A stretch of 64,000 bases of DNA from positions 248,001 to 312,000 of the forward strand of contig JANJGN010000152.1 of NCBI GenBank assembly GCA_026770705.1. The letters are read 5' to 3'. Source of the stretch: Isurus oxyrinchus (taxonomy: Eukaryota). The notes beneath the pieces were generated by a model that was not told the origin of the DNA, searched no databases, and saw only the letters and a program-made list of their open reading frames with translations. Position 1 is the first letter of the stretch. Each line of letters begins with the position of its first letter. Below, piece after piece: positions 3,288 through 55,625 of this stretch. The position numbers and the translations under genes are program-made.

Positions 3288-4138
3288 GGAACTTTGCACC
3301 GGTAAAATGCTATGACTGGATATGATGGATCTAGCAGATCCATCAATACAAGTCTTGTGACCTCAACTGATAGCACTTTCCATGCTTTGGATCACGTTAA
3401 AACGATCGCCTTCCCCTGCCTCTTTAGCTTATTACTTGTATTGGGTATTAGTAGGAACGCAATTGCTTAGTGGCACATCATAAGATTAAAGAAACTCTCG
3501 TCCCCATCTGATGTGCTTGTGCTGGACTTAACCATCACCAACTTGTTGATTATTGCTGCTTCCAACAGATCCTAGCAGATCCTGAGCACCAAAATATAAT
3601 TCAGGGACGTGATAACAGGCAAAGCAGAAAAGGAGAAGAGCCAACATTCCAGCATCTACAGAATTACCTGGAAAAACTCAGCAGGTCTGGCAGCATCGGC
3701 AGAGAAGAAAAGAGTTGACGTTTTGAACCATTTTTCCAGCATCCACAGTTTTTTGTTTTTATTCCAGCATCTATCTTCAAAAGTTTCTTTTCATCAACTC
3801 CATGGGTTGCTTCCCAGTTCCCACTCCTGTCAGTTTCTGTGATGTCAGGACATAGAAGATGAACAGGATCCGGACTGGAATAGCGAACGGCATAATTTCA
3901 GAAATCAGCACGAATATTTCCCGTGGCCTCCACGCCGTGGACATTTCCTTGCATGAAACTGTATTATATAATATCTTTATCTGTCTGAAAATAGTAATTA
4001 AACTCAGAGCTAAGACTTCCAGCCAAGTTTCAATGGACAGAATAACATAGTATCGATGCTTTCTCCAGGCCTGAGACCTGGTGAGGTGGGCAGCAGCTAT
4101 GTATTAGTCAACAACAATGCAGGCCATGAAAGGTGCAT
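3288..4138 (-). pseudogene. TCR alpha/delta-type V pseudogene interrupted by two insertions
   Basis: Leader-like exon 4138-4078 (MHLSWPALLLTNT*LLPTSP, phase 1); acceptor ttttcag near 3985. Frameshifted pieces NTVS..., NYAVRYSSPDPVHLL, GKQPMELMKR, FSALPVITSLNYILVLRI, AFYRCKV join up once the inserts are removed. No RSS found. Confidence 0.5.
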
Positions 4139-4430
4139 ACAAGAGAAGGATAAAACTATTATATAACTGCATTGTGATATAATCTAGGGTAATAGCAATA
4201 ATGTCAACTGTGGAAGCAACAATAATCAACAAGTTGGTGATGGTTAAGTCCAGCACAAGCACATCAGATGTTGACGAGAGTTTCTTTAATCTTATGATGT
4301 GCCACTAAGCAATTGCGTTCCTACTAATATCCAATACAAGTAATAAGCTAAAGAGGCAGAGGAAGGCGATCGTTTTACCGTGATCCAAAGCATGGAAAGT
4401 GCTATCAATTGAGGTCACAAGACTTGTATT
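3345..4430. repeat. 220-bp inverted repeat pair (3345-3564 and 4211-4430)
   Basis: Arms read as reverse complements with only scattered mismatches. Confidence 0.95.
3659..3760. mobile_element. Short Penelope-terminus insertion with 13-bp TSD
   Basis: Flanked by attccagcatcta (3646-3658 and 3761-3773); sequence matches the Penelope terminal region. Confidence 0.85.
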
Positions 4431-4829
4431 TCCACTCTGATTGGATGGGTTAATCTCAGGCGAGGGTGTGAGGACTGTTACGTTCCAGCTCACAAATTTA
4501 TGAATTTGATGTAACATAGAATATGGAGAGCAGTGGAGAAAATAATGACCTTAAATCGTACAATAACAGTTGAGACTACGCGGTCAGATTATTGGCTGTT
4601 AACTTCCCACTTTTATCTCCAACACGTCAATGCTATTTCATTCGTACAGTTTGGCTAATGTACTTCTCGGAAAACTATGGATACCATCTGATATGAGAGA
4701 TCCCTGTGGTGACAACATGCGGGAATCAGAATCCTGTAAATTTACAGATGGAAATAAAGTTATTGAAGTACTCAAAATAATGTCATCCTATATGTTGGAA
4801 AGCGAGCTATCTGGACACTGAATAATGTT

Positions 4830-5390
4830 TCTCACTCTCCCTCAGAAATATGCCTGTCCGCTGCTTGGTATCTCTAATGACTCTCCCTGTGCATGGACAG
4901 TTATTTCCCTGCCTCTCTGTTTGAGCGAGATATTTGCAAACTGCCCACACTGACCCTCAGTCTCTTTCCCTCGGGAAGATATTTGACCCCTGTCTGAGAT
5001 TCCCTAGCCTTTACCTTTTATCTAAATGAAAACTGATTAACGACTCCGACTCCCAACCGCTGATGGAAATATCTGCACGCTGGCTCATGTCTTCAAGTCC
5101 CTCACCTCAGAAAGATATTGGTACACTGATTTGTATCTTTCCGTGCCTCCATCTCAATGAAATATTTGTGCACTAACCAATTGTTCTGAGTCTGCCTCCT
5201 CTGGGGAGGTATCTGCACGCTGACTGATATTGTTTAAGTTTTTCTCTCACAGGAAGATAGTTGCCCACTGACTGGTGTCACCCTTTGCGCTTTGAGTCAG
5301 CAAAATATCTAAAGATTATATGGTGCCCCTAAGCCCCTCTCTTGGAGGTACATCTGCACACTAACTGTTTGCTCTCGGTCCCTTTTCGGA
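4830..5390. repeat. Diverged tandem repeat, period about 48-52 bp
   Basis: Recurring motif agatat(c/t)tg...cac(a/g)ctgac. Confidence 0.55.
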
Positions 5391-5451
5391 GGCTTGGGTA
5401 GGAGGAGGGGTAGGGGAGGGGAGGAGGTGGGTGCGTGTGAGGAGGAAGTAG

Positions 5452-5982
5452 CGGAGAAGGTGGCGTAGCGTTATTGTCACTGGACTAGTAATTCAGCGAC
5501 CCAGAGTAATGCTCTGCACACTGGGGCTCGAAACAATGTGGGTCACCCTGTAATGGCCTAGCAAGTCACTCAGTTGTATCAAGCCTCTAGAAAGCATATA
5601 AGAAGTAAAACCGCACGGGCAACCCGGCATCAAATTAAGGCACCGGAAACTACAACAGCAAACTCAACGCTGTCGACGTTGCAAAATCCTTCTTACTGAC
5701 ATCTGGAGGGTTTGTGCCAAAATTGGTAGAGCTGCCTCACAGACATGTAAGCAATAGCCTGAAATAGTCATCCTCGCGGAATCATACAAGACAGGTAATG
5801 CCCCAGGCACCAGCATCACCATCCCTGGGTATGTCGTGCCCCAACGGCACGGACAGATCCAACAGAGGTGGCGGCGCCGTGGTACACAATCGGGAGGGAG
5901 TTACTCTGGGAGCCCTCAACATTGACTCCGGGCCCCACGAAGTCTTATTGCATCTGGTCAAACATGGACATCTACACCTGAT
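5452..5982 (+). mobile_element. 5' fragment of a non-LTR retrotransposon (tRNA-like head, then endonuclease start)
   Basis: Head matches the SINE heads at 47640 and 51617; 3' part (DSGPHEV..HLVKHG) overlaps the start of the LINE at 20690. Confidence 0.7.
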
Positions 5983-6782
5983 AACCTTTGATTCCTTTGC
6001 CTAACAAGAATCTACCTAGTAGATCAGATGTCAGTACACACTGAGATTTCCATATCCTCAATGCGATATTCAACATTTTCCATATTGTCGACATGAACTG
6101 CAAACAACCATTGAAGGACCAGGGCAACGTATTCATCAATATTTAAAGTAATTCATTCACTGCTGAGGTTTTTCTTACGTCTATTATTTGCCATCTCCAA
6201 AGTAAATAACTCTCTCCCTCTCGTGTCGCAGGTTTATGCCTGTTTCCTTATGCAGCAAAATCTGTCTCAGCTCCTTTATGTCTCTATCTTTGTAGCTAAC
6301 GATTAGACCCCCGATTTAGATTGATGCAGGACTAAGAAGAAAAAGCCGAGCGGAAAATTTACCTAACAGCCCAGCTTTCTTTCGCTACATGTAATTGTAC
6401 TGGACATTTTTTTAAAAAGGAAGGCGCCGCTGGTTTGTGTAATGAATTATTCATTTATTTACTCAAATGCTGAACTTTGTATACCGATTGTCAATGAAAT
6501 AATTAGAAACACAGGTGAGCAAACATACCGTTCGAAATTGTACAACATTTCCTTGAGGATAGAACTCGTCCTTGGTCACCTCCCATCCCGTCTTCTGATA
6601 ATAAGTAATTTTATTAATTAAACACTCAAGTCCGTATTTGGAAAACACCTGTATTACCTCTCCTAACATGACGCCAGATTGGAGGAACCATTGCAGTTGT
6701 TATTTCGTTCTGAAGCCCTCCAACCATTCAAGGTTGAACGCACCCTTTGTGTCCACAGGGAGCCTTGTTGCACATCCCTCAT

Positions 6783-7160
6783 GGGAACATAGAAACAGAG
6801 GACTTACGAGCAGAAATAGGCAATTCAGCACTGGGATTATGCTCCGCCATTTGATAAAATTATGGCAGATCTCGTTATGGTCTCAACTCAGCATTCTAGT
6901 CTGGAAACTATATTTGCCTCTCAAAACAAATATCCAATTTAGCCTTGAATAAAGTCAATGGCCCAGACAAAACCTTTTTCTGAGAAAAAGAATTTCACAG
7001 GCGAATGACCATCTGAGAGAAGACAAAATGTCTTCTCATCTCTCTCTTGAAAAGGAGGCAGCTTGTTTTGAAACAATGTCCCTCTAGCTCTAGCTCTAGT
7101 CCTCATAATCTGGTAAAGGATTAAAAAATAGTTTGTTTCATATTCAATCCTGCTCTGAAC
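6783..7160 (-). mobile_element. Degenerate CR1 3' fragment
   Basis: Reverse complement resembles CR1 3' end (aacatagaaacagagga...aggcaattcagc; cccctctagctctag). Confidence 0.55.
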
Positions 7161-11188: not shown

Positions 11189-11485
11189 AGGACTCATGGT
11201 ACAGAAATACACTGGCGTCGGAGACCAAGGCTTTACTAATCGTTGACTCGGTGATGTCAGTAGTTTTAGCAAACCTAAGAGAGAATCAGTCTGCAAAGTA
11301 GAACTTTCAATTTGTTATCCATCCATGGAGTGGGTGGACAGCGGAGGGTGCTTGGAATGTTGACTACTCCACAGCACATAAGGGTCAGAATAACTTGGTT
11401 GAAGGTGCAGTTCAGGGTGATAATACTTCCTCTTCAGCCGTCATTTCAGCAGCCGACTATTCTACTGTGTGTTGATGGCTCAATT
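11189..11485 (-). pseudogene. TCR alpha/delta V pseudogene exon
   Basis: Acceptor atgtcag; frameshifted translation ELSHQHTVE*SAAEMTAEE/GSIITLNCTF/SYSDPYVLWSSQHSKHPP...FAD*FS...TISKALVSD/VYFCTMSP. RSS position is occupied by CR1. Confidence 0.8.
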
Positions 11486-11643
11486 CTGACATAAATGTTG
11501 GGAATAGTCACCATCTCATCATCAGCAACATCGTTATCAGTGCATCGTTTTATTCATTTACGGAATTTGGGCTTCACTGGCTGAGCTAGCATTTATTGCC
11601 CATCCATAATTGTCATTGAGAAGGTGGTGATGAGCTGCCATCT

Positions 11644-12681: not shown

Positions 12682-12714
<33 letters not shown>

Positions 12715-14779: not shown

Positions 14780-14985
14780 CGATCTGATGTCACGAATTGG
14801 AGAGTAAAGGAGCTCTCAGCTGATTGGACGAATAACAGAATAAAGGACCTGATTGGATGCCACCTGCTGATTCTGTCAAGAATGAACCAATAGGCAGAAA
14901 TGCCGGATGTTGCGCAATATTAACCAAACTTTTCACGAAAACAATTTCAGGTACACGCCCTCTACTCTGAAAACATCCTCAGCAG
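14780..14985 (+). promoter_or_regulatory. Orphan V-gene promoter paralogue (CRE-like TGATGTCA, multiple CCAAT/ATTGG boxes)
   Basis: Collinear with 20130-20340, which lies upstream of a V leader. Confidence 0.55.
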
Positions 14986-14994
14986 AAGGAGTGG

Positions 14995-15374
14995 AGATCA
15001 AGAATGTGGGAGCCTGCTCCCAGTGCTGACGGTACAGTTGTATGAAATAGAAACCAGCAGTGGTCGCATAACTCAAATTAATGTTCACCGAGTCTCCTTC
15101 AAACTGTTGCACTCTCTCCGGCTCCTGCAAAACAGAGTCTGCAGCATGAATACCTGCAGAAATTTAGAAATAGAAAGCTTTAACTTTTTATGAGAATTTT
15201 TTATCACCAATTGTTATTAAGTTAAAAGAATATATGCAAATACAGGGAAAAGGCAGTTAAAGGGAAGATTACTGTCTCAGTGTCACCATCAAGATGAAAA
15301 TTGGGTAACTTGTGAGTCTTACCAGTTAAGAGAGCTTCAGCTGCGAGGACTGATTAAAAAGTAACACCCATCAT
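14995..15374 (-). pseudogene. TCR alpha-type V pseudogene, 3' truncated
   Basis: Leader 15374-15323 MMGVTF*SVLAAEALLT|gtaag with internal stop; acceptor tttctgcag; exon from 15153 GIHAADSVLQEPERVQQFEGDSVNINLSYATTAGFYFIQLYRQHWEQAPTFLIS. Confidence 0.85.
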
Positions 15375-15912: not shown

Positions 15913-16535
15913 TCTAAACCATTCACTGTTGGTTCAGCGTAATATACAGTTGACACTGACCAATCACCTTCCACCGCTGGCTCTTTCTGCCTATCTTTCT
16001 CGTTCCCTTGCTCTGTCTCACATAATCAATCATTCTGTCTCTTTCTCGCTTTAATTCGCTTTCTTTATAATTCAATGTCTCTATCTTTAGATAGATAGAT
16101 CTTTCGCTCTCATTAAGTCATTGGGGATCATCTTGTACTGGTAAAGTGCCGAGTTTAGCCATTCACTATTTTTACCCCAGACACTCTGAAATGTGCTGAG
16201 CCTTAGGCCGCCTTTGAAACTAGGTCACTTTTGAAACTAGTCCCTGACAGATAGGCAGCAGGCCCAGAACCATTACAAATACAGATTGGTTCTGGTATTC
16301 ACCCGGGGGCTCTACAGGTTTTCATTAAGCGGACAATGAGAAGTTTGAATTTGATCCTGGAGTTAACATGATCGTTGAATGTCACATTTCGCAACAATGA
16401 CAAACATTGACCTTAACGAGAGGAATCAACTCGAATTAGACTGCATTGTTGCAATTCATTCTCTGCACTGGTTCTCTGGGGTTGAACTCTTTGCGTTTTC
16501 TTAATATTTGAACCCTTGATTGTCGACCTGCACCC

Positions 16536-16574
16536 AGTTTCTGGATGAGACCCACGAGACACTCAGTCCCTGTG
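16536..16574 (-). promoter_or_regulatory. 23-RSS of the V at 16575 (CACAGGG-23-CCAGAAACT)
   Basis: Spacer counted as 23 nt; directly after YCALG. Confidence 0.85.
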
Positions 16575-17015
16575 GGCCCCAGCGCGCAATAATGCACGGA
16601 GCTGTCTGTCATCTTCAGCTCTTTCATGAACAAGTGAAAAGTGCTTCCTGGCGGGTTGAGGTTCCCGTTGGAGTGTTTAAATCCAGAGCTGTATCGTTAT
16701 ACCCGTAAATATCGGCTCTGATCAGATACTGAGGAGTTTGCTGTGGAACCTGGCGATATCAGAACAGGTTATGCTGTGTAGCTCAACTCGATACAGAGTA
16801 ACTTGCAGGTTATTGCTGAACCTTCGCCCTCTCCTGCTTCGCAACATTGTTCTGGCTGGGAACCTGAGTCTCCAGTTCTCGTCTCTGAAAATAAACAGCG
16901 GCTACACAGCGGATTAGAAGGAGCATTAGAAAGAGAATTATCATCCGGAGATGGGAAATTGCACAAGGATCGCGTACTGGCCTGTGATCAGGAACATAAC
17001 CATAGTCAGAGCAAC
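16575..17015 (-). pseudogene. TCR alpha/delta V pseudogene
   Basis: Leader remnant ALTMVMFLITG near 17010-16978; acceptor ttttcag at 16885; ETRTGDSGSQPE...EGEGSAITCK/YSVSS*ATQHNLF*YRQVPQQTPQYLIRA.../FHLFMKELKMTDSSVHYCALG with stops and frameshifts. Confidence 0.9.
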
Positions 17016-18203: not shown

Positions 18204-18391
18204 ATGAAACTCTGCCTGGCTTTGGTTATTGTCTCGATCACTAGTCGGTGATATTGGGCACTTCCTATAATTTTCTCCCATCTTTGTATAATTTCCCAAT
18301 TCCATCTCTGGGAGATTCGTCTCTTTCTGTCACTTCACCTAACCTGCTGTGTGTCCGTTGTTTATTTTCAGAGATGAGTGATGGAGATTCA
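18204..18391 (+). pseudogene. TCR V fragment (leader plus first codons; remainder deleted)
   Basis: Leader MKLCLALVIVSITS; intron/acceptor gtttattttcag|AGATGAGTGATGGAGATTCA paralogous to the 16.9-kb V. Confidence 0.7.
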
Positions 18392-19402
18392 TTGCCTGAG
18401 AAAGAACAAGAAATCGGATCAGAAGATTCCCCGGGAATTTACACAGAAAAATGAATGAAGAAATACATCCTGATCTGATTGTGATCCGCCAGCTTGAAAT
18501 CACTGCTCTCAGATTTAGAGAAATTGAAATTTCTCAATCATTTTAAGTTATGGCCAAATTTAGAAATTTCCACTTCCATGCACAGAATTATGGACTTCTG
18601 AATGAATACCCGAGCCAACTGTTGTCGTAAGTGTTCTGGGTGTTCTGTAGACTCTTCAGGTCATATTTTTAATTGCTATTTCACCAGTGCAGCTATGTTC
18701 ACTTCATCATGTCTCTGGGCTCTTTTGGCTGTGACTAGTAATGGAGATTATTGACTTTGACAGTGATGACAGGGAATGAATTGCGTTTCATTATTTTCCA
18801 CTGAAATTGTTAGGGAGAGGGGTGAGCGTTAGAAGGGGCGGATATAGAGAGAGGGAGGGAGAAATAGGCAGCGTGAGACCGGGATAAAAGGGAGATCACT
18901 GGAATGCATAGGTGTAGAGAGAGATGGAAAGAGAAAGACAATGAGTTAAGCAAAGTGTATGAGATCAGGACAGAGAGATAAAGAGAGAGGGGCAGAGGCG
19001 GGAAAGGAGTAGGAACAAGATGAAAGGTGCAGACGAAAAGGCAAAGAGAGGAAAACGCCGGATTAAGCAGATAGATTGACGCAGGAGCACCAAGGGAAAG
19101 AGAGGAAGAGAGAGAGAGGCTGAGAGACAGACAGACAGACTGACAGACAGAATCGCTCACACAGCCAGACAAGGAAAATGTTGGACAGGAGACTTCAGTC
19201 ATTGGCTCACAGCCAGCGCCGCTTGGCATACATCTGCTGTCAGTTCTGAGGGGCCAGACAATCGTGTCAAAGAGAAACGCCCAGAATTCCCACTACAAGC
19301 GAAATCTCCCCCTTCGCTGAATTTGCTCCTTAATATCGGACCAGAAATGTCAACATAGATAAAACATTCTGTTCATTTCTATCATAGCTTAAACAAGACA
19401 CC

Positions 19403-19778
19403 ATGCGTTCACCATGTTCCTCACTGGTAGCAATATGGTACCTGGTGAGTCTATGTTTAGGTGATCAGTTTTTGAAACATTCTTTATTTTGCCGCAACGA
19501 GTGACTAAGATTCAGAATCTCAGGGTTCGCCTTCATGCTTAACACTGCATGAAGAAAAGATCCTGATACGAAGCTGCAGTTACTCCACGTCCCATGGCAT
19601 TCACTATCTCCACTGGGATGTCCTGGAGCTCCGAGATATTTACTGGGGAAATACAGGCTGGCGCAAGAGGCTAAGCCTCCAGATCTCCCAGAGCGGTTTT
19701 CTGCTGATTTGGAAAAATACAAGAAAACTATTCCCTTGACTGTCTCTGTCTCTGCCGTGTGTCACATGGACTGAATGC
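19403..19778 (+). pseudogene. TCR alpha/delta V pseudogene
   Basis: Leader-like exon 19403-19444|gtgagt; DSESQGSPSCLTLHEEKILIRSCSYSTSHGIHYLHW/PGAPRYLLGKY...LPERFSADLEKYKKTIPLTVS..SAV with deletions. Confidence 0.85.
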
Positions 19779-19816
19779 CACACTGTTACAGAGGCTCAGT
19801 TAGGCCATAAAAAACC
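19779..19816 (+). promoter_or_regulatory. 22/23-RSS (CACACTG-22-TAAAAAACC)
   Basis: Directly follows the V exon. Confidence 0.75.
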
Positions 19817-20351: not shown

Positions 20352-20677
20352 TATATTGGTTTTACTTTTTATCCATTTCTCACAGCTGTAGCTCTCTTAC
20401 CCAGTAAGTCCACAAGTTGCACAACCTTCCTCTTGCATAGATCTTAAAGTTAATTTCACTGTTCTCTCTTTCAAGTTGCAGCATGTTCCGTCACCTGATT
20501 TTATTAGATAGAATAAAATGATAATGCAATCTTAACGGTCTGCATCTCTAAATTCCCGCAGGTGTTGGTGGTACAAATTCAATCTCACAGGAGCCGGTTA
20601 CAGCGCTGCAGTTGAAGGAGATTCGGTGATCATTGCTTACAGCTATTTGACCACTGATGCCTCATATTCTATGCAGC
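20352..20677 (+). pseudogene. TCR alpha-type V pseudogene (paralogue of the 15-kb V), truncated by a LINE
   Basis: Leader without ATG (YIGFTFYPFLTAVALLP|gtaag, ends 20403); exon from 20562 SVGGTNSISQEPVTALQ/EGDSVIIAYSYLTTDASYSMQ. Confidence 0.85.
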
Positions 20678-20689
20678 CATGCCCCCGGG

Positions 20690-23830: not shown

Positions 23831-23999
23831 GTGATTAGCACAGCACATACAGGAATTATGTAGTTCTGTGGTTAATATCTAAAACAGTAACTGAATTCGG
23901 CATTGACAGCATCTGCAATAGCAGAGTGTGTCCAGTAGGTGACAGTGAAACCGTGATTGCTGACATTACCTGAAGTGTGCATTGTCTCAATCAGTTCTG

Positions 24000-31869: not shown

Positions 31870-32035
31870 GACCCCCCCCCCCCGCACCAACCTTAAACCA
31901 GCTTATATTTCACCCCTCTCCTATTTTTACTTAGTTCTGTTGAAGGGTCATGAGGACTCGAAACGGCAACTTTGTTCTTCTCTGCCGATGCTGCCAGACC
32001 TGCTGGGTTTTTCCAGGTATTTCTGTTTTTATTTT
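31870..32035 (+). mobile_element. Penelope 3' terminal fragment
   Basis: Matches 40910-41060. Confidence 0.85.
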
Positions 32036-36800: not shown

Positions 36801-39800
36801 GCAGTGATTACTCATAAAGGGCCTAGGTTAATATGAAATGAGACAGGTCATAGTACAGTGATGACTGATACAGGGTCTAGGCAAATATAAAGTGGGATAG
36901 GGCCAAGTGGAGTGATTACTGATACAGGGTCTAGATCAATGTAAACTGGGATAGGGGCTAGTGCAGTGATTACTGATACAGGGTCTGGGCTCCTATAAAC
37001 TGAGGCATTCCCTAGTTCTGTCATTATTGATACAGGGTAAGGGCTAATATAAATGGAGACAGGGTCTAGTGAAGTGATTACTCATAAAGGGCCTGGATTA
37101 ATATGGATGAGACAGGTCATAGCGCAGTGATTACTGATACAGGGTCTAGGGTAATATAAACTGAGACAGGGTCTAGTGCAGTGATTACTGATGAAGGGTC
37201 TAGATCAATATAAGCTGAGAGAGAGTCTAGTGCAGTGGTTACTGATACAGGGTCTAGATTGATATAAAATGAGGCAGGCCATCATGCAGTGTCTACTGAT
37301 ACAGGGCCTAGATAAATAAAAACTAGTGCTTACTGATACAGGATCTAGATCAATACTAAGTGAGAGTGTCCATTGCACTGATTATTATTCAGGGACTAGA
37401 TTAATACAAACTGAGATAGGGTCTAGTGCAGTGATTCCTGATGCAGGGTCTGAATCAATATAAACTGAGACAGGTCCAAATGCAGTGAGTACTGTTACAG
37501 GGTCTCGGTTGATATTCAGTGATGCAGGGCATAATGCAGTGAATACTGATACAGGGTCTAGCAAAATATAATCTGAGACAGGCTCTAGTGCAGTGATTAC
37601 TGTTACGGGGTCCACATTAATATAAGCTGAGACAGTGTCCAGTGTAGTCATTACTAATAAAGGGTCTAGATTGATAGAAAATGAGCCAGGGACGAGTGCA
37701 GTGTTTACTGAGCATGGTGTTGATCAGTATAAACTCAGATAATGTCCAGTGCAGTCTTTACTGATATAGCGCTGAGATAAATATAAACTGAGACTGGGCC
37801 TACTGCAGTGATTACTGATACAGGGTCTAGATTAATATAAGCTGACACAGGATCTAGTGCAGTGATTACTGATACAGTACCTGGACAAATATAATCTGAG
37901 ACATCATCTAGTTCTGTCATTACTGATACAGGGTCTGGACTAATATAAACTGACACTGTGTCCAATGCATTGAATACTGATACGGGACATGGATTGATAT
38001 GAACTGAGTGCAGATATTACTGATACAGGACCTAGATAAATATAAACTAGGACACAGGCTGGGGCAGTGATAACTGATACAGGGTCTAGATACATGTTAA
38101 CTGAGATAGGGCCAAGTGTAGTGATTACTGATACAAGGCCGAGTTTAATATAAACTGAGACAGGGCCTGGTGCAGTGTTCACTGATACAGGGCCTAGATA
38201 AATAAAAATGAGGACAGCAGCTATTGCAGTGATTACTGACACAGAGCCCAGATCAATACAAAGTGAGAGTGCCTGTTGCACTGATTATTATACATGGTCT
38301 AGATTAATATAAACTGAAATAGTGTCTAGTGCAGTGATTTCTGATGCAGGGCCAGTATCAATATAAACTGAGAAAGTGTTCAGTGCAGTGATTGCTGATA
38401 AAGGGTCTAGATTAATATAAACTGAGACAGGGCCAAATATCAGTGATTACTGTTACAGGGTCTAGGTTGACACGAAGTGGGGCAGGGGATAGTGCAGAGG
38501 TAACTGATACAGGGTCTAGAACAATATAAACTGAGACTGGGTCTAGTGCACTAATTAATGTTACAGGGTCCTAATTCATATATACTGAGTCAGCACGTAC
38601 TGCAGTGATTACTGATATAGGCACCAGATTAAGATGAACTCAGGCAGGGCCTTCTGCAGTGATTAGTGATACAAGGTTGGATTTATATAAAATCAGACAG
38701 GCTGTATTGCAATCATTACTGATACAGGGTCTGGATCGATATAAACCAAGACAGTGACCAGTACAGTGTTCGTTTACAGGGTCTAGACTAATATCAACTG
38801 ATACAGAGCCTAGTGCAGTGATTACTGATACAGAGTCTAGACTGATAAAAACCGAGGCAGGGCATAATGCAGAGATTAATGATACAGGGTCTAGATTAAC
38901 ATAAACTGACACAGAGCCCAGTGCAGTGATAACTAATGCAGGGCGAAAATAAATATAAACTAGGACAGAGGCTAGTGCAATGATTAATGATACAGGATCC
39001 GGATCAATATAAACTGAGATGGTGCCCAATGCAGTCATTATTAATACAGGGTCTAGATTAATAGAAACTGAGGCAGGGTCGGGTGCTGTGTTTACTGATA
39101 CATGCTCTTGATCAATTGAAACTCAGACAGTGTCCAGTGCAGTGTTTACTGATACAGGGCTGAGAGAAAAATAAACTGGGACAGAGCATAGTGCAGAGAT
39201 AACTGACACGTGGTCTAGAAGAATATAAACTGAGACAGGGCTTTGTGCACTGATTAGTGTTACAGGGTCCAGATTAATACAAACTGAGACAGGGCCTAAT
39301 GCAATGATTACTGATACAGGGTCTAGGTTAATTTAAACTCAGACAATGTCCAGTGCAATGTTTACTGATACAGGGCTGAGATAAATACAAACTGAGACTG
39401 GGCCTACTGCAATGATAACTGATACAGGGTCTAGATTAATATAAACTGAGACAGGGTCGAGTGCAGTGATTACTGATACAGTATCTGTACTAATATAAAC
39501 TGAGACAGTGTCCAATGCATTGATTACTGACACAGGATCTAGATTGATATGGACTGAGTGCAGATACTACTGATACAGGGCCGAGATAAATATAAACTAG
39601 GACAGGAGCTAGTGCAGCTATTACTGATACAGGGTCTCGATCAATATAAACTGAGACAGTGTCCATTGCAGTGATTACTGATGCAGTGTCTGAATCAATA
39701 TAAACTGAGACAGTACAAAAACAGAATTACCTGGAAAAACTCAGCAGGTCTGGCAGCATCGGCAGAGAAGAAAAGAGTTGACGTTTCGAGTCCTCATGAC

Positions 39801-42505
39801 CCTTCAACAGAACTGAGTGAATATTAGGAGAGAGATGAAATATAAGCTGGTTTAAGGTGGGGAAGGGGTGGGGGGAGAGAAGTCGGGGGGTGTTGGTGGT
39901 GGTGTTGGTGTGGTTGTAGGGACAAGCAAGCAGTGATAGAAGCAGTTAATCAAAAGATGTCACAGACAAAAGAACAAAGAGGTGTTGAAGGTGGTGATAT
40001 CTAAACAAATGTGCAAATTAAGAATGGATGGCAGGGCACTCAAGGTACAGCTCTAGTGGGGGTGGGGTGGAAAGACTAGCTGGGTATAAAAAAATTAAAA
40101 ATAATGGAAATAGGTGGGAAAAGAAAAATCTATATAAATTATTGGAAAAACAAAAGGAAGGTGGAAGAAACAGAAAGTGGGTGGGGATGGAGGAGGGAGT
40201 TCAAGATCTAAAGTTGTTGAATTCGATATTCAGTCCAGAAGGCTGTAAAGTGCCTAGTCGGAAGATGAGGTGCTGCTCCTCCAGTCTGCGTTGGGCTTCA
40301 CTGGAACAATGCAGCAAGCCAAGGACAGACATGTGGGCAAGAGAGCAGGGTGGAGTGTTAAAATGGCAAGTGACAGGGAGGTTTGGGTCTTTCTTGCGGA
40401 CAGACCGCAGGTGTTCTGCAAAGCGGTCGCCCAGTTTACGTTTGGTCTCTCCAATGTAGAGGCGACCACATTGGGAGCAACGAATGCAGTAGACTAAGTT
40501 GGGGGAAATGCAAGTGAAATGCTGCTTCACTTGAAAGGAGTGTTTGGGCCCTTGGACGGGGAGGAGAGAGGAAGTGAAGGGGCAGGTGTTGCATCTTTTG
40601 CGTGGGCATGGGGAGGTGCCATTGGTGGGGGCTGAGGAGTAGGGGGTGATGGAGGAGTGGACCAGGGTGTCCCGGAGGGAACAATCCCTACAGAATGCCA
40701 CCGGTTGGGGGGGGGGGGGGGTGCGGTGGGGTAGGGGTGGTGAAGGGAAGATGTGTTTGATGGTGGCATCATGCTGGAGTTGGCGGAAATGGCTGTGATA
40801 TCTTTTGATTATCTGCTCCTATCACTGCTTGCTTGTCCCTACAACCACACCACCGCCTCCCCCCACCACAACTTCTCTCCCCCTCCCCCAACCCACCCAC
40901 CCCCCCACCCCCACCTTAAACCAGCTTATATTTCACCCCTCTCCTAATATTCACTCAGTTCTGTTGAAGGGTCATGAGGACTCGAAACGTCAACTCTTTT
41001 CTTCTCCGCCAATGCTGCCAGACCTGCTGAGTTTTTCCAGGTAATTCTGTTTTTGTTTTGGATTTCCAGCATCCGCAGTTTTTTTGTTTTCATAACTGAG
41101 ACAGTGTTCAGTGCAGTGATTACTGATACAGGCTCTAGGTAAATATTAACTGAGACAGGGCCTGGTGCAGTGATTACAGTGACAGGGCCTAGTTTAATAT
41201 AAACTGAGACAGGGCCTGGTGCAGTGTTCACTGATACAGGACATAGATAAATATAACTGGGACAGGGGTTGTTGCAGTGATTACTGCTGCAGGGACTAAA
41301 TAAATACAAACTGAGACTTGGTCGAGTGCAGAGATAACTGAGACAGGGCCAAGATCAATAAAAATTGAGGCAGGGTCTAGTGCACTGATTAATGATACAG
41401 GTCTAGATTAATATAAACTCAGACAGTTTCTAGTGCAGTGATTACTGACACAGGGTCTAGATTGATATATACTGAGGCAGGGCATACTGCAGTGATTCCT
41501 GTTTCAGGGTCTTGAGTAATATAAACTGAGACAGGCTCTAGTGCAGAGATTACTGATACAGGGTCTAGCTTAATATAAACTGAGGCAGTTTCCAGAGCAG
41601 TGATTACTGATACAGGCTCTAAATTAATATAAACTGAGACAGCGGCTAGTGCAGTGATTACTGATACAGGGACTAGATTAATATGAAGTAAGACAGGCTA
41701 TCATGCTCGTATTACTGATACAGGTACTATATTAACATAAATTGAGCCTGCATCTAATGCAGAGATTACTAATACAGGGTCTAAATCAATATAAATTGAG
41801 ACACTGCCTTGGACATTGAATACTGATACAAGGTCTTGATTAATAGAAGCTGAGGCAGGAGCAAGTGTAATGATTACTGATACAGGCTCTAATTTGATAT
41901 AAACTGAGGCAGAGCATAGTGCAGTGATTACTTATATAGGGTCAAGATAAGTATAAGCTGGGACAGAGTCAAGTGCAATGATTACTGATTAAGGTTATAG
42001 ATTAATATAACTTGAGATGGGCTCTACTGCTGTGATCACTGATTCCAGCTCTTGATTAATATAAACTAAGACAGGCTCTACTGCAGTGATTACTGTTTCA
42101 GGGTCTAAACTAATAGAAACTGAGACAGGGTTTGTGTAGTGATTACTGAAGATTAATATAAACTCAGGCAGGGTCTAGTGCAGTGATTCAGCATCTAGAT
42201 TACTAAAAACTGAGACTGGATCCAGTGCAGTGTTTACTGATACAGCGTCTAGATTTATATAATTTGAGGCAGGGTCTAGCGCAGAGAAGACAGATACAGG
42301 GTCTGGATTATTATAGACTGAAACAGGGTCTGGTGCAGTGATTACTGACATAGCGTCTAGATTAATACAAACTGAGACAGGGTCTACTGCAGTGATTACT
42401 GACACAGTGTCTAAATTAATATAAACTGAGACAGTGTCTAGTGCAGTGATTCCTGAATTCTGCTCTGGACGAATATAAACTGAGACAGGGCCAAGTGCAA
42501 TAATT
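33810..42505 (+). repeat. 27-bp/54-bp dimeric satellite array (CAGGGTCTAGTGCAGTGATTACTGATA + CAGGGTCTAGATTAATATAAACTGAGA)
   Basis: Roughly 270 monomers; contains an inverted block (34468-34992) and a Penelope insertion. Confidence 0.97.
39715..41093 (-). mobile_element. Penelope-like element, 5'-truncated, with inverted terminal repeats
   Basis: ORF 40701-40201 with CxxC pairs and GIY-YIG (LVYCIRCSQCGRLYIGETKRKLGDRFAEH...LEEQHLIFRLGTLQPSGLN); about 39716-39965 inverted vs about 40795-41055; flanking aactgagacagt is a possible TSD. Confidence 0.95.
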
Positions 42506-43759
42506 ACTTCATCATTGACGCCCGTATCCCAAGAACAAATTAAAACGCTGCAAAATACTGCGGATTCTGGAAAACTAAAGCAAGACAAAAAAAATAACAC
42601 TCAGCAGGTCAGTGGGCATCAATAGAGTGAGAAAAAGATCAAACTTGCAGGTCGATGACAGATGCAAAATCTCCCTTGGTATTACTCTGTAGAGCAGGAC
42701 TGATCTTCCCACTATCCTTCACCAATATTCATTCTTCAACTAAAATTACATATTATCTAGTCATCTTTCACAGCTTTATTCATGGGATCTTGCTGTGCAC
42801 AAATCACCGGATGGATTTCCAACATCACAGCAGTGACGAAACTTCAACAAAACTACGAGTTTTAAGGATTTTAGGGTTTCATCAGGTCATAATCAACATT
42901 CTTTCAATGCAAACTCTTTCTAAGTGTTAGCATTTTAAAATGCTAGTTGTGATACGTTGAAAACTGTGAGACTAATATAATAATAGGTCGCTCCTCTGGC
43001 TGCTGTTTTAAACTGTCCGGTTTAAATGGGTTAAGTCTTCCAATAAATTGACATTCAGTGGAATTCTAGCCTGTTCAAAGATTCTTCGTTGATTGTGATA
43101 GGACAATTTTCAGAACTGAATTATTAATTTAAATGTAATTTTAATTGTTTGAAATAAATAACATCTGTTCTAATGGATCTTGAAGTGGTTTCTATTAATT
43201 TTGTACCAACTGTCAATATTCTTAAAATAAACCCTTGTTTTGAGTTGGAACCAATCAATAAGTGTCTGTGTTTATCTGGTTTTGCTGCCATGGACACTTC
43301 ATTGAAACCAGTGAGGCGTTTATGTAAATAAACACAGAAATAGAAGTCCCAGATTAGATTCTGGAGACACAAAAACACAGCAAATATTTCCCCATTAACA
43401 AAGCACAGAAATGGAGTCAAACATGCAAATACATCAACAGATTCCAGTAGCAATTGTTTTTTGGACATTTTTAAAATCAGTTATGTGAGAATTATGTCAC
43501 GATGACATCTGTGTTGAGAATTAAGAAAGATTCCCACTTATCATGAAATATAATGTCACGGCAAATGTGTTTGTACAGATTTCCTGTATCCTCTGTCTCT
43601 CTCTCTGTCTCTTTCTCCTCTCTGGTTCTGTGTCTTGTCTCTCCACCATGGGTCATTGTCTTCACTCCACAACATGAAGTGAATGTCTAGCCAATGTATT
43701 CTCCCAGCACGATTCAGACACTTCAAACTAAATGGATCTAATGAAATGGATTGGAATCC

Positions 43760-44770
43760 GTGGAGGGAACTTTACTCTAAATCAGTTTTGAGTCTTCAAT
43801 GACCTGGGAGTGCTTGATGGGAAACTGCAAATGAAAATTTACTCTGCGCCTAACCTGTGTTGTAGCCAGTAGCGAGGATTTGATGTGGCCGTGCCAAAGG
43901 ATCTTTCCTTGTATCTAACCCGTGCTGTCCCTGCCTTTGCAGCGTCTGATGGGGCAGTGAGGAGGGAACTTAATTTTGCACTGTACCTGCACTGTACCTG
44001 TCCTAGGAGTATTTGATACGACTGTGTAGAGGGAGATTTACTCTGTATCTAAACTGTGCTATACCTGACCTGGGAGTAATTGATAGGGCAGTTTAGAGGG
44101 AGCTTTACTCTGCATCTAAACTATGCTGTATTTGACATGCCTGTGTTTGATGAGACAGTGTAGTCGGAAATTTGCCCCATATCTAAGCCCTGGGAATGCC
44201 TGATGTGACGGTGCATAGGCAGCTTTCCTCTTTCCCTGCCCCCAGTGTCGAGCTGCCTGGGAAATGTCTGATGGAACAGTGCAGAGGAAACTTTACACTG
44301 TTTAGTACCCTTACCCTATACACCTTGACTGTGTTTGAGCGGACAATGTAGAGGAAGTTTTACCCTGTATCTAAACTATGCTGTACCTGTCCTGGGAATG
44401 TTTGATGGCGACAGTGTAGAGGGAGTTTTACTCTGAATCTAACCCGTGCTATACCTGACTTGGAAGTTTTTCATCTGACGACATAGAGGGAGCTTTACAT
44501 CATTAATCTTGCCCCATGCTACACCTGCAGCTGTTTGATGGAGCCGTGGGCCTTGTCTCTGCATTACACTAGGTCATGTCTTACCGTATCTAAACCGCCC
44601 TGTACCTGCCCTGGGAGTGTTTCATGGTGAGAGTTTCGAGGGAGTTTCACTCACTTTGACACGTGCTGTACCTTCCCTGGGAGTGTTCAATATGGCAATG
44701 TAGAGGGAACTTTAAATTTTGTGCCTGGCCCCATGCTGTACCTATCCTGGGAGTGCTTGATGGGACAGTA
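43760..44770 (+). repeat. 67-bp tandem repeat (tgtatctaacccgtgctgtacctgccctgggagtgtttgatgggacagtgtagagggagctttactc)
   Basis: Period 67 measured between 44041 and 44108; isolated copies near 58820-58930 and 59545-59620. Confidence 0.9.
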
Positions 44771-46110
44771 GACCTGGTCTCGATATTGCATTCGACCGTG
44801 GCCCTGTCCCTGTTTATATTAATCAGGCCGGACCCTGTCTCTGTTTATATTACACTAGAACCTGTCTCTGTATTACACTAGGCCCTGTCCCTGTTTATAT
44901 TACACTCGACATGTCTCTGTTTACATTATACTCGACATGTTTCTGTTTATATTGCAACAGACACTGTCTCTGTTTGCATTACACTCTGCCTTGTCCCTGT
45001 TTATATGACATTCAACATGTCCCTGTTTATATTATACTCGATATGCCTCTGTTTATCTTGCACTAGACGGTGCCTCAGTTCAGATTGCACTAGGCCCTGT
45101 TCCAGTTTATATTACACTCAACATGTCTTTGTTCACACTGTACTAGACCCTGTTTCTGTTTATATTACATTAGACCCTGTGTCTGTTTGAATTACACTTG
45201 GCACGTCTCTGTTTATATTACACTCGACTTGTCTCTGTACTATTTTTGCACTCGATGCTGTCTTTGTTGATTTGAACTATGCCCTGTCCCTGTTTACATT
45301 AAACTGGACCCTGTATGTAATTGGACCCAGTCTCTGTTTGTAATACACTAGACCCTATTTCTGTTTATCTGACACTAGACCCTGTCTCTAATTATATTAC
45401 ACTGGACCCCGTTTCTGTTTATAATACTCTCGACCCTGCCTTTGCTTCCATTAAACAAGGCTCTGTCTCTGTTCTTATTATACATGACATGTCTCTTTAT
45501 ATATTGATCTAGAACTGTCTCTGTATTTCAGCAGACGCTGTCTAAATTCTGTGCTAGATCATGTCTGTATTTAAATTACATTAGGCCCTGCCTCAGTTGG
45601 TCTTACACTGAACAAGTGCAATAACGTGGAAATTAGCTGGGGTGGAAACAGTGAAGATAATACAGCAAGATGGTGGGAACAGTAAGGATGCAAAAATTCT
45701 TTTGGGAACAATTATCTTGGGTGCTTATTTAGATGTCGTGACTTGCCCTCCCTGCATCCCAGATTTGTGTTCATAAACTGCAGATCTCTCTTACCTTGCA
45801 GCTGTTTAAATTTAACTCCTATTTCTCGGGTCTAGTGCAATAAAGTAAGGGGATATAGTAATGTAATATAAAGAGAGGACAATTACATAAGTAACTGAGA
45901 CAGGATCTCATGTTACAGAAACAGAAGCATGGACTAAAGCAGTAACAATATGACAGGCCTAGTGTAGTATGAACAGAGACACGGTGGAGTGCAGCAATAA
46001 CCGAGACAGGGTCCAGTGTTACAGTAACAGAAACATGGACTACAGCAGTGATAATGTGGCTGGCCCAGTGTAATATAAACAGAGACAAGGTGGAGTGCAG
46101 CAATATTGAT
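44770..46110. repeat. 27-bp-satellite-related arrays (- to about 45620, then + 45830-46110)
   Basis: Recurring gaccctgtctctgtttatattacacta. Confidence 0.85.
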
Positions 46111-46114
46111 AACA

Positions 46115-47015
46115 GATGTCCTGAAGTCCCACAGAACCAGATACGATATGCATGGAGATACCTCCTGGTGATTACCCTCCCTCAGCTGATGAATCTGTAC
46201 TCCTTCATCTTTTGCACTACTTGAAAGAAACACTGAGTGTAGCAAGGGCAATGAATGTGCCGTGAATTTGCAAAATCAATTACCATTTGACAAGACCACT
46301 AATGACTGAGCTGCAGGGTCCTGAACGACATATCTGCCAGACTGGACCTGCCACAGATGGTGATAGAGCCAACACGATAGAGAACCCTATCCCATCTCGG
46401 GCCGATCACACTATTGATATAGGTGTGATTGACCCCTGCACTGTCCTTGTTTAAACCAAGGCTGGTATTCACACTGGGCACATTCTCTATTGTGTTGTGC
46501 TGCACTGCCGCCATGCTAAACATGATACATTCAGAACAGATCTAGCATCTCAAAACTTGGCATCAACGAGATGCTGTTGGCCATCAGCAGCAGAATAATT
46601 GCATTAAGTCCCAACCTGTGATCTCATGGTGAATAACTTACCTCCGGGCTCCCCGAAGCCTTTCCACCATCTGCAAATCTGCAAGTCAGATGGCTGTTGG
46701 AAGTTGTTTACTTTCCTGGATGAATGTAACTGCAGCAACACTCAAGAATCTCCACGCCAACCAGGGGAAATCAACCCCTTGGTAGGCACCTGATCCAGGA
46801 GTTAAACATTCATTCCCTTCACCAACGTTACACAGTGGCTGCAGTGTGAACCATCCACAAGATGCACTGCAGTAACTCGCCAAGGCCTCTTCAACAGCAA
46901 ATTCCATGCCTGTGACCTCCACCTCCCAGAATAACAAGGGCAACAAGCACATGGGAACGCAATGCCCTGAATCCTCCTGCGCATAGTACTCAAGAGTCTT
47001 GGGCACTGGCAATAG
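46115..47015 (+). mobile_element. Decayed LINE of the same family as 20690-23130
   Basis: ccctccctcagctgatgaatc, gaacagatctagca, accatctgcaa...gcagcaacactcaaga are collinear with that copy. Confidence 0.75.
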
Positions 47016-47639
47016 AGAAGCGATATCTGAAATCTAATTCTGCTGACTGCGCTGAAAATGAATACCAAGTGCTGCGTAGCATATGCAGCTGATCCGTTAC
47101 CGCCTGTTTCAGGCTATTGCCATATACCGATTTCTAGCCTAACATCTATATTTATAATATTATCTTTCATCTCACAAAAACATGGAGTAACACGGCCATA
47201 ATTTAAACAGAGGCATAGATTAAAGCAAAACACTGCGGATGCTGGAAATCTAAATAAAAACAGAAAATGCGGACAAACTCAGCAGGCCTGACAGCATCTG
47301 TGGAGAGAGAAACAGAGTTAATGTTCCGAGTCCATGTGATTCTTCTTCAGAGACATAGTCTAGTGCCCTAGTTAAAATGATTAGGTATGGACAATATAGT
47401 CATAGTCAAGATCTAATATAATATGAAAAGAGACAGGGCCTCGTTTAATATAAACAGAGACAGGGTTTAATGTAATATAAATAGAAACAGGGTCCAGTGC
47501 ATTACAAACTGAGATGGCTTCTAGTGGAACGTTATCGAGATGGAGTCTATTTTAATACAAACAGAGGCCTGATCCAGCACAGTAGAAATAACGTAATTCC
47601 CAGGAAATTAATAACAGAACCAGAATCCTGTATAACATG

Positions 47640-48170
47640 GAAGGGGCGATCGTGCAGTGGGAGCGTCACTGGATTAGTAACCCAGAGATCCAGGCCTTTT
47701 CCCTGGGGATAGGGGCTTGAATCCCATTATGGCAGCATGTGGAATGCAAATTCAATTAATAAATCTGGAATTGAAAGCTCGTCTTAATAAGGGAGACCAT
47801 GAAACTATAATCGATTATATTAAACATCCATCTAGTTCACAGGTACCCTTTAGGGAAGAAAATCTGCCGTCCTTACCCAGTCTAGACCATATTTATTTTC
47901 TTCACTCATGGGAATGTGGGCGGCACTGGCTAGGCCAGCATTTATTGCCCATCCCTAATTGCCCTTGAGAACAGTGTGGCTTGTTAGGCTATTTAAGAGT
48001 CAACTACATTGCTGTGGGTCTGGAGTCACATGCAGTCCAGACCAGGTGGCATTAGTGTGAACCAGATGAGTTTTTACGACAATGTTTCATGGTCATCGTC
48101 AGATATTTGAATTCAAATTTCAGCATCTGCCGTGGTGGGATTCAAACACAGACCCCAAGCAAATTACTGG
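47640..48170. mobile_element. Two tRNA-derived SINE copies in opposite orientation (47640-47885 +, 47895-48170 -)
   Basis: Both match 51617-51992. Confidence 0.75.
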
Positions 48171-49049
48171 CCCAGTGAGAATACAACTGCACCACAGCTT
48201 CCCATACATATAACTCCAGACCGACAATTTTGTGAGGTCCCATTCTCGGGTTATTTGTTTAATTGCCCACCACCATTAACGACTGGATGTGACAGGACTG
48301 CAGAGGTAAAATCCAATCCGTTGGATGTGGGATCTCCAAGAATATGTGATATGAATATTGGTATTGACTGGTGCAGTATTAATTGAAATGGCGTACAGTG
48401 AAATATAAACAGAGACAGTGTTTGGTCTAACATAAAAATAGATGGAGTCCAAATTAACAAGACAGAGACAGGGTCCAGTGCAGTGTTAATTGAGACAATG
48501 CCTGCTTTATGGAATGTATCCTTCAAGATTTCAAATCCATCTGCTGGCCAAACTTTGCAATTGCAGCTCCTGTGAAAATGTCGCTGTCAGGTTAGACCTT
48601 TGACATTATTGTATCAAGAATCCACTTCCCCAGATGTAGTACCACATCACCTTCTGCGGGAGGTGTCAAAATTTAACACAATTCAACTAATTGCAGATGA
48701 ACGTGGTTGATTAGCGCACGTTAAAGTCAGCACCAGAGTAAAGTGGCCCAATTCCTGGTGATGCAACTTTTTTCATCTTGATTAAAGGGAGGGATGTTGA
48801 CCAGGGCGCTGTACAGAGAAGGCGGGAATTTTAATATCCACCTCAACAAACATGATGCTGGGGAGAGCTTATTGGTTCATGATACCACCTGAAAGTCAGT
48901 TAGGGTCATTTTCTTCAATAGTTCAGAGATACGGAGCCTCCCAAAAAGTCAAGGTGGGATCTTAAGTTGAAGCACAAGATGCCATTTTGGTCTCAGTGTG
49001 TGTGTGAGTGTGTGTGTGTGAGGTAAAGAGAGAGGAGAGGGAGAAGCAG

Positions 49050-50610: not shown

Positions 50611-50630
50611 TGAAGGCTGAGAAATATACA

Positions 50631-53785: not shown

Positions 53786-53872
53786 GCTCACTGGGACCGG
53801 AATCCAACAGTCCGGGAGCTGGTTTGTTCACTGAGTTCTGGACAGAACCATTTTCCCCAGATGACCAGAAGG

Positions 53873-54350
53873 ATGAGGCCGGCGATTTCTCTCAGTTTGT
53901 TGCTGACTTTCTTATCCCGTGAGTAGTTTTTATTGTCCAAGTCTCTCACTGTTACTGTCTGTGTTAGTCTCTCTCTAGAATGTTACAGAGTCAAGAATCA
54001 TTTCAACAGGGTTAATCTTCGGGGTTTTTGATATATTTTTACAGGTGTCCAGTCGGATGTTGTGTTGACTCAGCCAGAGGCAGAGACCGGGCGTCCCGGA
54101 GGCACCCTGAGACTGACCTGTAAAACCAGCGGCTTCGATCTTGACAGCTCCTACATGAACTGGGTCCGACAGGTTCCCGGACAAGGGCTGGAATGGCTGG
54201 TTTACTACGGTGATTCATCGGACAACAGCTATGCCCCAGCAATTAAGAATCGATTTACGGCGTCCAAAGACACTTCAAGGAGCATCTTCTCCTTGGACAT
54301 GACGAACTTGAAGATTGAAGACACCGCCATCTATTACTGTGCCAGAGAGT
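53873..54350 (+). CDS. IGHV: IgM-type heavy-chain V gene: leader exon 53873-53918 plus V exon 54045-54350, open
   Basis: [71 protein letters not shown]...RFTASKDTS...[10 protein letters not shown]; GT/AG phase-1 intron; elasmobranch IgM VH hallmarks. Confidence 0.97.
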
Positions 54351-54389
54351 CACAGCGAAAGGAACCAGGGCTGGACCCGAACAAGAACA
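54351..54389 (+). promoter_or_regulatory. VH 23-RSS (CACAGCG-23-ACAAGAACA)
   Basis: Spacer counted. Confidence 0.95.
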
Positions 54390-54755
54390 GATCGAGAGGG
54401 ACTCAACAACTTCCATCGTAATCTGACGGTCAGTACTTGTTTTAAATGTATTATTAACTGTAATGATCAGACCCAGACAACAAGCCACTTGTGACAAAAG
54501 TAAAACAGCAAATTTAACAGGAAACCTAACAAACCAATCGATATAATGGGCTGAGCTTTTCGCTGTGTTTATATTTACTGATAAGTTTCCGCAATTACAG
54601 ACCTGGATATAATACCCATTTTAACCTGCCTGACACTTGGAGGAGGGTCTCTATTCATTGAGTTTTGTAAATTGCTGCATGAATTCTAAACCGGATCAGA
54701 AGTAAACGACTATTTGAAGTGAAGATTGGGATGCAGCACTGAACAGAGCAGGTGC

Positions 54756-54835
54756 AGTTTTTGTGCGTCTGTATTTCACTGTGATACTACAGTGGGTCAC
54801 AGTGCTGTGCACAGCGACATCCTCATACAAAAACC
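54756..54835 (+). other. IGHD: DH1 segment (ATACTACAGTGGGT, 54784-54797) with 5' 12-RSS and 3' 22-RSS
   Basis: AGTTTTTGT-12-CACTGTG / CACAGTG-22-ACAAAAACC. Confidence 0.96.
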
Positions 54836-55137
54836 TCAGCGAAAGAGTTTGTTCAAACTGGTGATCAATATCACAGCAGGAACGTCAAAGAAAATGAGAG
54901 TTAAGTAAAATAATGGGTAGAGGTTTGCAAAAAGGTATAAAAGTCTTCCGCTTTGTTCGTGTTGACGGACACTCTAAATCTGCACAGAGTCTTTAAAAGT
55001 ATTCCAATTGCATTTATAAATATATTCACCAGCACAGCTTGAAATATCTCACCGATTCGCTCTTAAGTGAGTCGGAATCAGGTTTTTGTGAGTGCAGTGA
55101 AATTAAATCTTTGTATTTTCAGTGAACAGTCTGCCGC

Positions 55138-55219
55138 AGTATTTGACATGGTGTGTCTCACTGTGATAACTGGGATGGCCCACAGTGTTACATTCCCTGG
55201 GCTGTGCCATACAATAACT
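55138..55219 (+). other. IGHD: DH2 segment (ATAACTGGGATGGCC, 55166-55180) with 5' 12-RSS and 3' 23-RSS
   Basis: AGTATTTGA-12-CACTGTG / CACAGTG-23-ACAATAACT. Confidence 0.94.
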
Positions 55220-55547
55220 GTCCCTGCACGAAAAAGACAGAAATCCACCATTATTTTAAATATTCATAAGTCAGGGGCAAAGTAAGTTCACGATAAATCT
55301 TCACGAAATTATATTTGCGTTGTAGTTATCTTTAGGTATTCATCAATGATCCTCATGTTTTACATTTCACAGAGTAACATATGAACATGTTCTTGTAAGC
55401 AGCAACCGATTAATGTATAATTATCACAGCTTTTCCATCTTAAACCATGTTTTTTGGGCAGCGCTGGACATAACTAATACTTCACTGTAAATATAGTTGG
55501 GTTGTAAAAGCGAGCACTGACCCAGGCAGACTCAATTAATGCTGAGG

Positions 55548-55625
55548 GGTTTTTGTATTGACAGTAACTGCTGTGGATCGCTACGGACTACTGGGGACAA
55601 GGGACCATGGTGACGGTGACTGCAG
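55548..55625 (+). other. IGHJ: JH segment (55576-55625, IATDYWGQGTMVTVTA) with 12-RSS and GTAAG donor
   Basis: GGTTTTTGT-12-TGCTGTG; WGQG motif; splice donor at 55626. Confidence 0.96.

Follow-up and report, generated by a model that had tools for sequence, protein, structure and literature searches.

Results

An IgM minicluster with an inverted D2-J spacer

The stretch of DNA analysed here, 64,000 nucleotides of Isurus oxyrinchus contig JANJGN010000152.1 (G000:C152:248001-312000; hereafter the window, with its contig called C152), carries broken T-cell receptor (TCR) variable (V) segments of alpha/delta type and, downstream of them, an immunoglobulin M (IgM) gene cluster in which the spacer between the second diversity segment (D2) and the joining segment (J) lies inverted. 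The cluster is complete from leader to J (53873-55625), with open V and J frames. A sequence-only reading of this DNA had rightly called it an intact IgM VDDJ; the inverted spacer was overlooked there.

All coding elements of the cluster lie on the + strand. The leader exon lies at 53873..53918, and the heavy-chain V (VH) exon at 54045..54350 has an open frame, matches Pfam V-set (E 8e-18) and falls within the IgM VH clade (support 97/87). The V is followed by a recombination signal sequence (RSS) with a 23-bp spacer (23-RSS; 54351..54389, RSS scan). The D1 region (54756..54835) is canonical, with a 12-RSS at 54756-54783, D1 itself at 54784-54797 and a 22-RSS at 54798-54835. The D2 region (55138..55178) consists of a 12-RSS (55138-55165) and a full-length D2 (55166-55178) identical to that of the canonical sister copy on contig C140. 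The JH (55578..55625) has an open frame and an intact splice donor. Past the window end, at the window-equivalent positions 68.2-74.1 kb, lie what we take, from motif and order and with no database match, to be Cmu1-4, the secretory tail and the membrane exon. The whole follows the elasmobranch IgM minicluster order, in which Cmu1-4, the secretory tail and the membrane exon come after L-V-D1-D2-J. D1 also contains a cryptic 23-spacer signal (54756-54794, - strand), which shares the nonamer of the D1 12-RSS and also occurs in loci L002-L005.

The canonical signal layout, as defined from sister clusters, is V-23, 12-D1-22, 12-D2-12, 23-J. The window cluster departs from it at two places, since the spacer 3' of D2 is of the 23 type and the one 5' of J is of the 12 type. 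This odd scan result arises because the D2-J spacer lies inverted, as its orientation in the genome search revealed. The inverted spacer is 395 bp long (55181..55575, - strand) and runs from heptamer to heptamer, and within it the former J 23-RSS (55181-55219) is now 3' of D2 and the former D2 12-RSS (55548-55575) is now 5' of J. Both breakpoints (55181 and 55575) lie exactly where heptamer meets coding sequence in a 12/23 pair, and the signal ends are untrimmed; in all four copies compared, inverted and canonical alike, the spacer is 395 bp long with whole heptamers.

The spacer orientation was scored in 40 of 130 candidate clusters in the genome search (query bases 1282-1676, equal to window 55181-55575). 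Relative to the window, 34 of the 40 had the opposite orientation, two the same (C152 itself and C26:36.12 Mb) and four had no spacer. Searches with exact J-side patterns returned 2 inverted and 38 canonical cases and 0 in the controls. The RSS layout was 12-D2-23 / 12-J in L001 and L002 and 12-D2-12 / 23-J in eight canonical loci (L003-L010; the D2 5' signal of L005 was under the scan threshold).

Palindromic inserts at both junctions

Each junction carries two extra nucleotides between heptamer and coding end: CC at 55179..55180 (+ strand), palindromic to the GG that ends D2, and GA at 55576..55577 (+ strand), palindromic to the TC that starts J. From the start of J to its Trp codon there are accordingly 16 nt in the window, against 14 nt in every one of the 38 canonical J segments, and in the sister copy on C140 the J begins with TC immediately past the heptamer. 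Given inserts of 2 nt, the chance that both are exact palindromes is 1 in 256. A 5-bp target duplication was found at neither inversion junction. In the available part of PMC2193153, P nucleotides are palindromes of untrimmed coding ends, and P inserts occur only at untrimmed ends. Since CC and GA are exact palindromes of untrimmed ends, they fit this definition and are probably P nucleotides.

Copies, age and likely inheritance of the inversion

The block that includes the V relics and the IgM cluster is present as three near-identical copies, on C152, C26 (36.07-36.15 Mb) and C140. The two inverted copies, C152 and C26, differ at 5/1311 positions from V to D2, 1/395 in the spacer and 60/~8900 upstream, and their junctions are identical. 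The canonical sister on C140 differs from them at 25-26/1311 positions from V to D2 and 3-4/395 in the spacer (98-99% identity), and the next-nearest cluster, 8-9% diverged, is canonical. Public sequencing data also show the canonical order: of 20 runs containing matching words, 4 were examined (labelled organism A or B, each with at most 0.40 of the words), and the contigs of all four have strand-change joints at the inversion ends. On these comparisons the inversion would be the derived state. Barring a transfer by gene conversion, it would have arisen once C140 had branched off and while the two inverted copies were still one. Two diverged assembled copies with identical junctions also suggest that it is likely inherited in the germ line.

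Germline-joined IgM clusters occur in the same field. In three of them D1 and D2 are joined (L166, C26:37.96 Mb; L167, C26:27.35 Mb; L168, C26:28.17 Mb), with junctions that all differ and with the V and J signals retained. In three others D2 is joined to J (L165, C26:38.82 Mb; L169, C151; L170, C210). These three D1-D2-joined and three D2-J-joined clusters point to germline RAG activity nearby. A further D2-J-joined cluster, at C26:32.92 Mb, is known from BLAST coordinates only, and two VH exons continue into J-like sequence without an RSS, apparently as fully germline-joined VDJ (L048, C26:24.43 Mb; L057, C26:27.18 Mb).

A fault of the assembly, or a hybrid joint made somatically in a lymphocyte clone and never inherited, might come to mind in a region so highly duplicated, with its three near-identical block copies and with the inversion known from assembled contigs of the source animal only. 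However, the two contigs share identical junctions while differing by substitutions (5/1311; 60/~8900), a misjoin would not place palindromic bases exactly at both heptamers, and a single lymphocyte clone would not change two diverged copies identically. We consider this explanation very improbable.

Six broken TCR alpha/delta-type V segments

DNA profiles built from 97 V/J/C probes, with the reversed window as control, gave seven match clusters in the window, namely six V relics and the VH, and 0 in the reversed window. A protein-level hidden Markov model recovered only 4/6 relics, so that the DNA profiles were needed; three reverse-frame false V calls had been taken out of the V sets by the time the profiles and the tree were made.

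Three relics lie on the - strand. The V pseudogene at 11195..11495 has 3 stops, 4 frameshifts and a lost RSS; its DNA is 67% identical to an intact V at C26:23.91 Mb, and it has a homologue on contig C242 (E 7e-66). The one at 14919..15189 comprises the 5' two-thirds of a V, has other residues in place of the first Cys and of the conserved Trp, and its top PDB matches are TCR alpha chains (E 3.3e-05). The third, at 16529..16900, retains a degenerate 23-RSS, has 2 stops and 2 frameshifts and is 79% identical in DNA to an intact V on C242; its place in the tree has 100/100 support. The other three lie on the + strand. At 18356..18427 there is a 5' stub of a V exon of ~70 bp (nhmmer E 2.4e-07), too short for the tree, whose surrounding DNA matches C242 (E 6e-29). 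The V pseudogene at 19474..19816, in the same orientation as the IgM cluster, has a 22-spacer RSS (19779-19816), and the 5' part of a V exon at 20535..20742 is broken near 20.66-20.7 kb by a long interspersed nuclear element (LINE), of which endonuclease and reverse transcriptase fragments at 20658-23013 were both under the Pfam cut-off. All six relics are broken, three by stops and frameshifts, two by loss of the 3' half and one as a 5' stub; threaded on their best intact relatives, they show 67-79% identity. A protein homologue search with a 73-amino-acid relic gave none.

A tree of 82 V domains over 100 columns, in which the entry W_20k was under half filled, the stub was left out and TRBV and TRGV were not included, placed 5/5 relics with intact 23-RSS non-Ig V genes (support 98/90 to 100/100), and put none with the IgM VH (97/87) or in the broader Ig clade (99/98). 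All six match C242 DNA, of which 70 kb was examined, with best E values from 1e-13 to 7e-66, which places the families of all six upstream of D-delta, J and C in the putative TRA/TRD locus. The tree placement, the C242 matches and the TCR alpha chains that are the best single-domain matches in PDB together identify the six as putative TCR alpha/delta-type V pseudogenes. The sequence-only reading had counted at least six clear TCR-type V pseudogenes at 11-21 kb and expected them to group with TRAV/TRDV. Six relics at 11.2-20.7 kb bear out the count and the grouping, and the word "clear" suits four or five of them; their distance of 33-43 kb from the IgM cluster also stands. Cis-rearrangement of these relics with the IgM, which it had proposed, could not yield a protein because all six are broken.

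The window genes are of cartilaginous-fish type, and a protein search with an intact TCR V of the same field gave three matches, two of them shark gene models at 58-61% and none a named TCR chain.

A mixed IgH/TCR field with its TCR core on C242

Among the 150 of 310 candidates that were scored, one relic family had at least 77 relatives, many with open frames, all of them either in the 23.1-40.3 Mb part of C26 or within the unplaced contigs C140, C151, C152, C242 and C301. IgM clusters occupy C26 27.3-40.0 Mb, intermixed with the TCR V relatives, so that intact and broken TCR V segments alternate with IgM clusters along ~17 Mb. A multi-copy TCR V family (L032-L034, L036 and L038) has open frames, a degenerate nonamer and replacements of the first Cys and conserved Trp. 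Three further V segments dispersed among the IgM clusters (L055, L056 and L060, at C26:29.96, 31.15 and 33.54 Mb) are close relatives of the supporting V-delta of C242, one of them 90% identical to it, and group with it at 100/100.

The unplaced scaffold C242 holds a compact TCR delta/alpha core (G000:C242:523000-750000), with NAR-TCR-like V and supporting V cassettes and two constant (C) exons. It begins with NAR-TCR-like cassettes and a VH-delta-like V, followed by a single D with 12/23 flanks; then come a J array with its C exon and another, long J array with a further C exon. From order and motifs, with no database match, we take these segments to be D-delta, J-delta, C-delta, J-alpha and C-alpha. 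The VH-delta-like gene lies ~5 kb upstream of D-delta and outside the IgM clade in the tree. The core contains two immunoglobulin heavy chain (IgH)-like V segments, one broken (582.5 kb) and one open with a 23-RSS (584.7 kb).

Since TCR V and IgM clusters alternate on both sides over ~17 Mb and the core is on C242, the window is not a boundary; it is an interior piece of a mixed shark IgH/TCR alpha-delta gene field, with no locus edge. Of the "boundary or intercalation" offered by the sequence-only reading, the intercalation holds and the boundary does not. The linkage is real, and one relic's same-orientation 22-RSS (19779-19816) is now formally compatible with the 12-RSS J, both of which would suit a special IgH/TCR boundary with V relics and IgM rearranging in cis. 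This account nevertheless has a very small chance of being right, given the alternation, the six broken relics and the duplication of the relic block together with its IgM as one unit, with another copy at C26:29.68-29.72 Mb (90-95%). In addition, the flanks, which had been proposed for annotation, contain Cmu, and the 97-probe search, which covered the window with 20 kb before it and 40 kb after it, found no D, J or C of TCR type. A weak C-delta match downstream of the window was rejected, as it falls on Cmu4.

Linkage across the N run and other features

A run of N at 29767..29896 separates the relics from the IgM cluster. The matching place is contiguous in C26 and C140, which bridge it without N, with 72 and 118 bases between the aligned flanks, and the relic-to-VH distances (39.2 kb in C152, 39.1 kb in C26 and 39.0 kb in C140) agree within 200 bp. 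The linkage of the two sides, on which the sequence-only reading depended, is hence confirmed. C152 and C26 match along ~187-455 kb of C152. The IgM clusters flanking this match are only 87-88% like those at the corresponding places of C26, and a plain allelic relation of C152 to C26 over its full length was rejected on that ground.

A 27/54-bp satellite occurs on both sides of the N run, as had been noticed, with 8 matches on the left, 77 on the right and 0 in the control. The satellite search placed the left patches at 23980..26059 and the main arrays at 32026..48500, including long 27/54/108/162-bp higher-order arrays at 35288-42508, which separate the V relics from the promoter region of the IgM. 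The occurrence of V relics on both sides had been claimed too, but no TCR V lies to the right of the N run. The extent given for the locus began at position 3288, where no V match was found; the place holds one arm of a 220-bp inverted repeat (3345-3564 and 4211-4430; 96.8% identity, arms separated by 646 bp), which contains no V and has no Pfam match in the nearby open reading frames tested. A GIY-YIG endonuclease fragment at 40201-40818 (- strand) is presumably from a Penelope-type retroelement.

Discussion

A germline double hybrid joint as the probable origin of the inversion

Dead TCR V segments thus stand upstream of an IgM cluster that is complete but has its D2-J spacer flipped, likely by RAG in the germ line, and we put the probability of this reading at roughly 0.87. 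The flip is best read as a recent germline double hybrid joint. In a germ-line cell, RAG would have made its cuts at two signals, the 12-RSS of D2 and the 23-RSS of J, the D2 and J coding ends would have been hairpinned and opened two bases off-centre, which would leave P nucleotides, and the excised signal fragment would have been rejoined backwards in place of the usual coding and signal joints. The sequence does not discriminate between sealing by end-joining enzymes and sealing by RAG itself. A flip without RAG, by template switching or by crossing-over between heptamers that form a short inverted repeat with five bases in common, is a very improbable account, as such an exchange adds no bases and would leave chimeric or unchanged heptamers, whereas in the window both heptamers are displaced intact, together with their own spacers and nonamers, and an extra 2 nt stand outside each of them.

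Predicted consequences

The swapped cluster would read V-23, 12-D1-22, 12-D2-23, 12-J. Its 12-D-23 / 12-J layout matches that of D-delta and J-delta in this genome, the D-delta of C242 being 12/23-flanked. Because the pair of signals between D2 and J is unchanged, D2-to-J joining and normal VDDJ assembly should still work. By the 12/23 rule alone, V-to-J and D1-to-J joins are predicted to be newly legal and would give a shorter complementarity-determining region 3 (CDR3), D2 could join a 12-RSS D-delta or J-delta, and the J of the window could take a 23-RSS TCR V. That the swapped IgM is expressed and in fact skips D (V-J or V-D1-J, with a short CDR3), donates V-D1-D2 to D-delta/J-delta or takes a TCR V onto J-Cmu is possible, though we regard it as rather unlikely. 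If true, it would provide a living example of a change of 12/23 layout between Ig and TCR loci, and of the origin of VH-delta-type genes. The 22-RSS already makes V-D1 available in canonical clusters, and the swap would therefore extend trans-rearrangement and not create it.

Several points weigh against the reading as a whole. The evidence for the inversion consists of two assembled contigs, to one of which assembly may have contributed, and alleles are indistinguishable from recent duplicates in the relation of C152 to C26. Among the contigs listed for the four public runs, none bridges the inverted junctions. The first J base is A in 36 of 38 canonical J segments, with T only in the sister on C140, and the P reading on the J side depends on that T being ancestral; we took it as such because C140 is the nearest copy and shares the T with the inverted copies. 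The event may have happened in a germ cell or in an early embryo. Joining of VH to TCR delta needs no swap, because the canonical D1 already has a 22-RSS, and every functional consequence of the swap is prediction only.

Germline hybrid joints that swap 12 and 23 signals are a proposed reason for the differing signal layouts among antigen-receptor loci. Here the before and after states stand in one genome at 98-99% identity, with hairpin-type inserts at both junctions and the gene otherwise intact. The swapped cluster offers a direct test of recent germline RAG activity and of the sufficiency of the 12/23 rule for the control of joining in shark clusters, and it also tests whether a delta-type layout promotes IgH-TCR chimeras.

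Comparison with known systems

TAILV / VH-delta genes are IgH-like V segments, with or without D, that have no J and C of their own and lie beside TCR delta D, J and C segments. The window cluster resembles them in that its V, of IgH type, would have a way to reach the D/J segments of TCR delta. It differs in having its own J and a full Cmu, groups with IgM VH and has no TCR D, J or C nearby, and so falls outside that definition. The available parts of PMC12227049 and PMC3457774 mention TAILV / VH-delta and trans-rearrangement between IgH and TCR delta.

The available part of PMC12227049 also describes the elasmobranch antigen receptor complex (AgRC), which, like the field studied here, links IgH miniclusters to TCR alpha/delta, with TCR-type V exons between the IgH clusters. 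The Ig/TCR intermixing at this locus is therefore already published, and our observation of it adds little; an RSS swap is not reported in that part of the paper.

Germline-joined cartilaginous-fish Ig genes, as they appear in the accessible portions of PMC2193156 and PMC5192425, show P regions and other RAG-type processing that has become fixed in inherited DNA, as is likely for the event in the window; in PMC2193156 the P regions are those of germline-joined light chains. Those are coding joints that delete the signals, whereas the event in the window keeps both signals and leaves a gene still able to rearrange.

The closest precedent is one IgH cluster of the horned shark in which the D1-D2 spacer was inverted by a germline hybrid joint (Kokubu et al. 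1988), a case which the available part of PMC2193153 presents as a route to RSS swapping. For a D2-J hybrid joint in a shark, we found no report in the literature searched, nor any mention in the accessible parts of PMC2435157, PMC3457774 and PMC5192425; Kokubu 1988, Deiss 2019, Ott 2021 and Criscitiello 2010 could contain one. As far as that account of the horned shark goes, the two cases are alike in that an RSS-bounded spacer was inverted within a V-D-D-J cluster, which is read as a germline RAG hybrid joint with a 12/23 swap. They differ in that here the D2-J spacer is flipped, P-type inserts stand at both junctions, the genome also contains an un-inverted sister (98-99%) and the 12-D-23 / 12-J layout of the product is of TCR-delta type. 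The D2-J swap is a new variation on a rarely documented event, and an unusually clean one.

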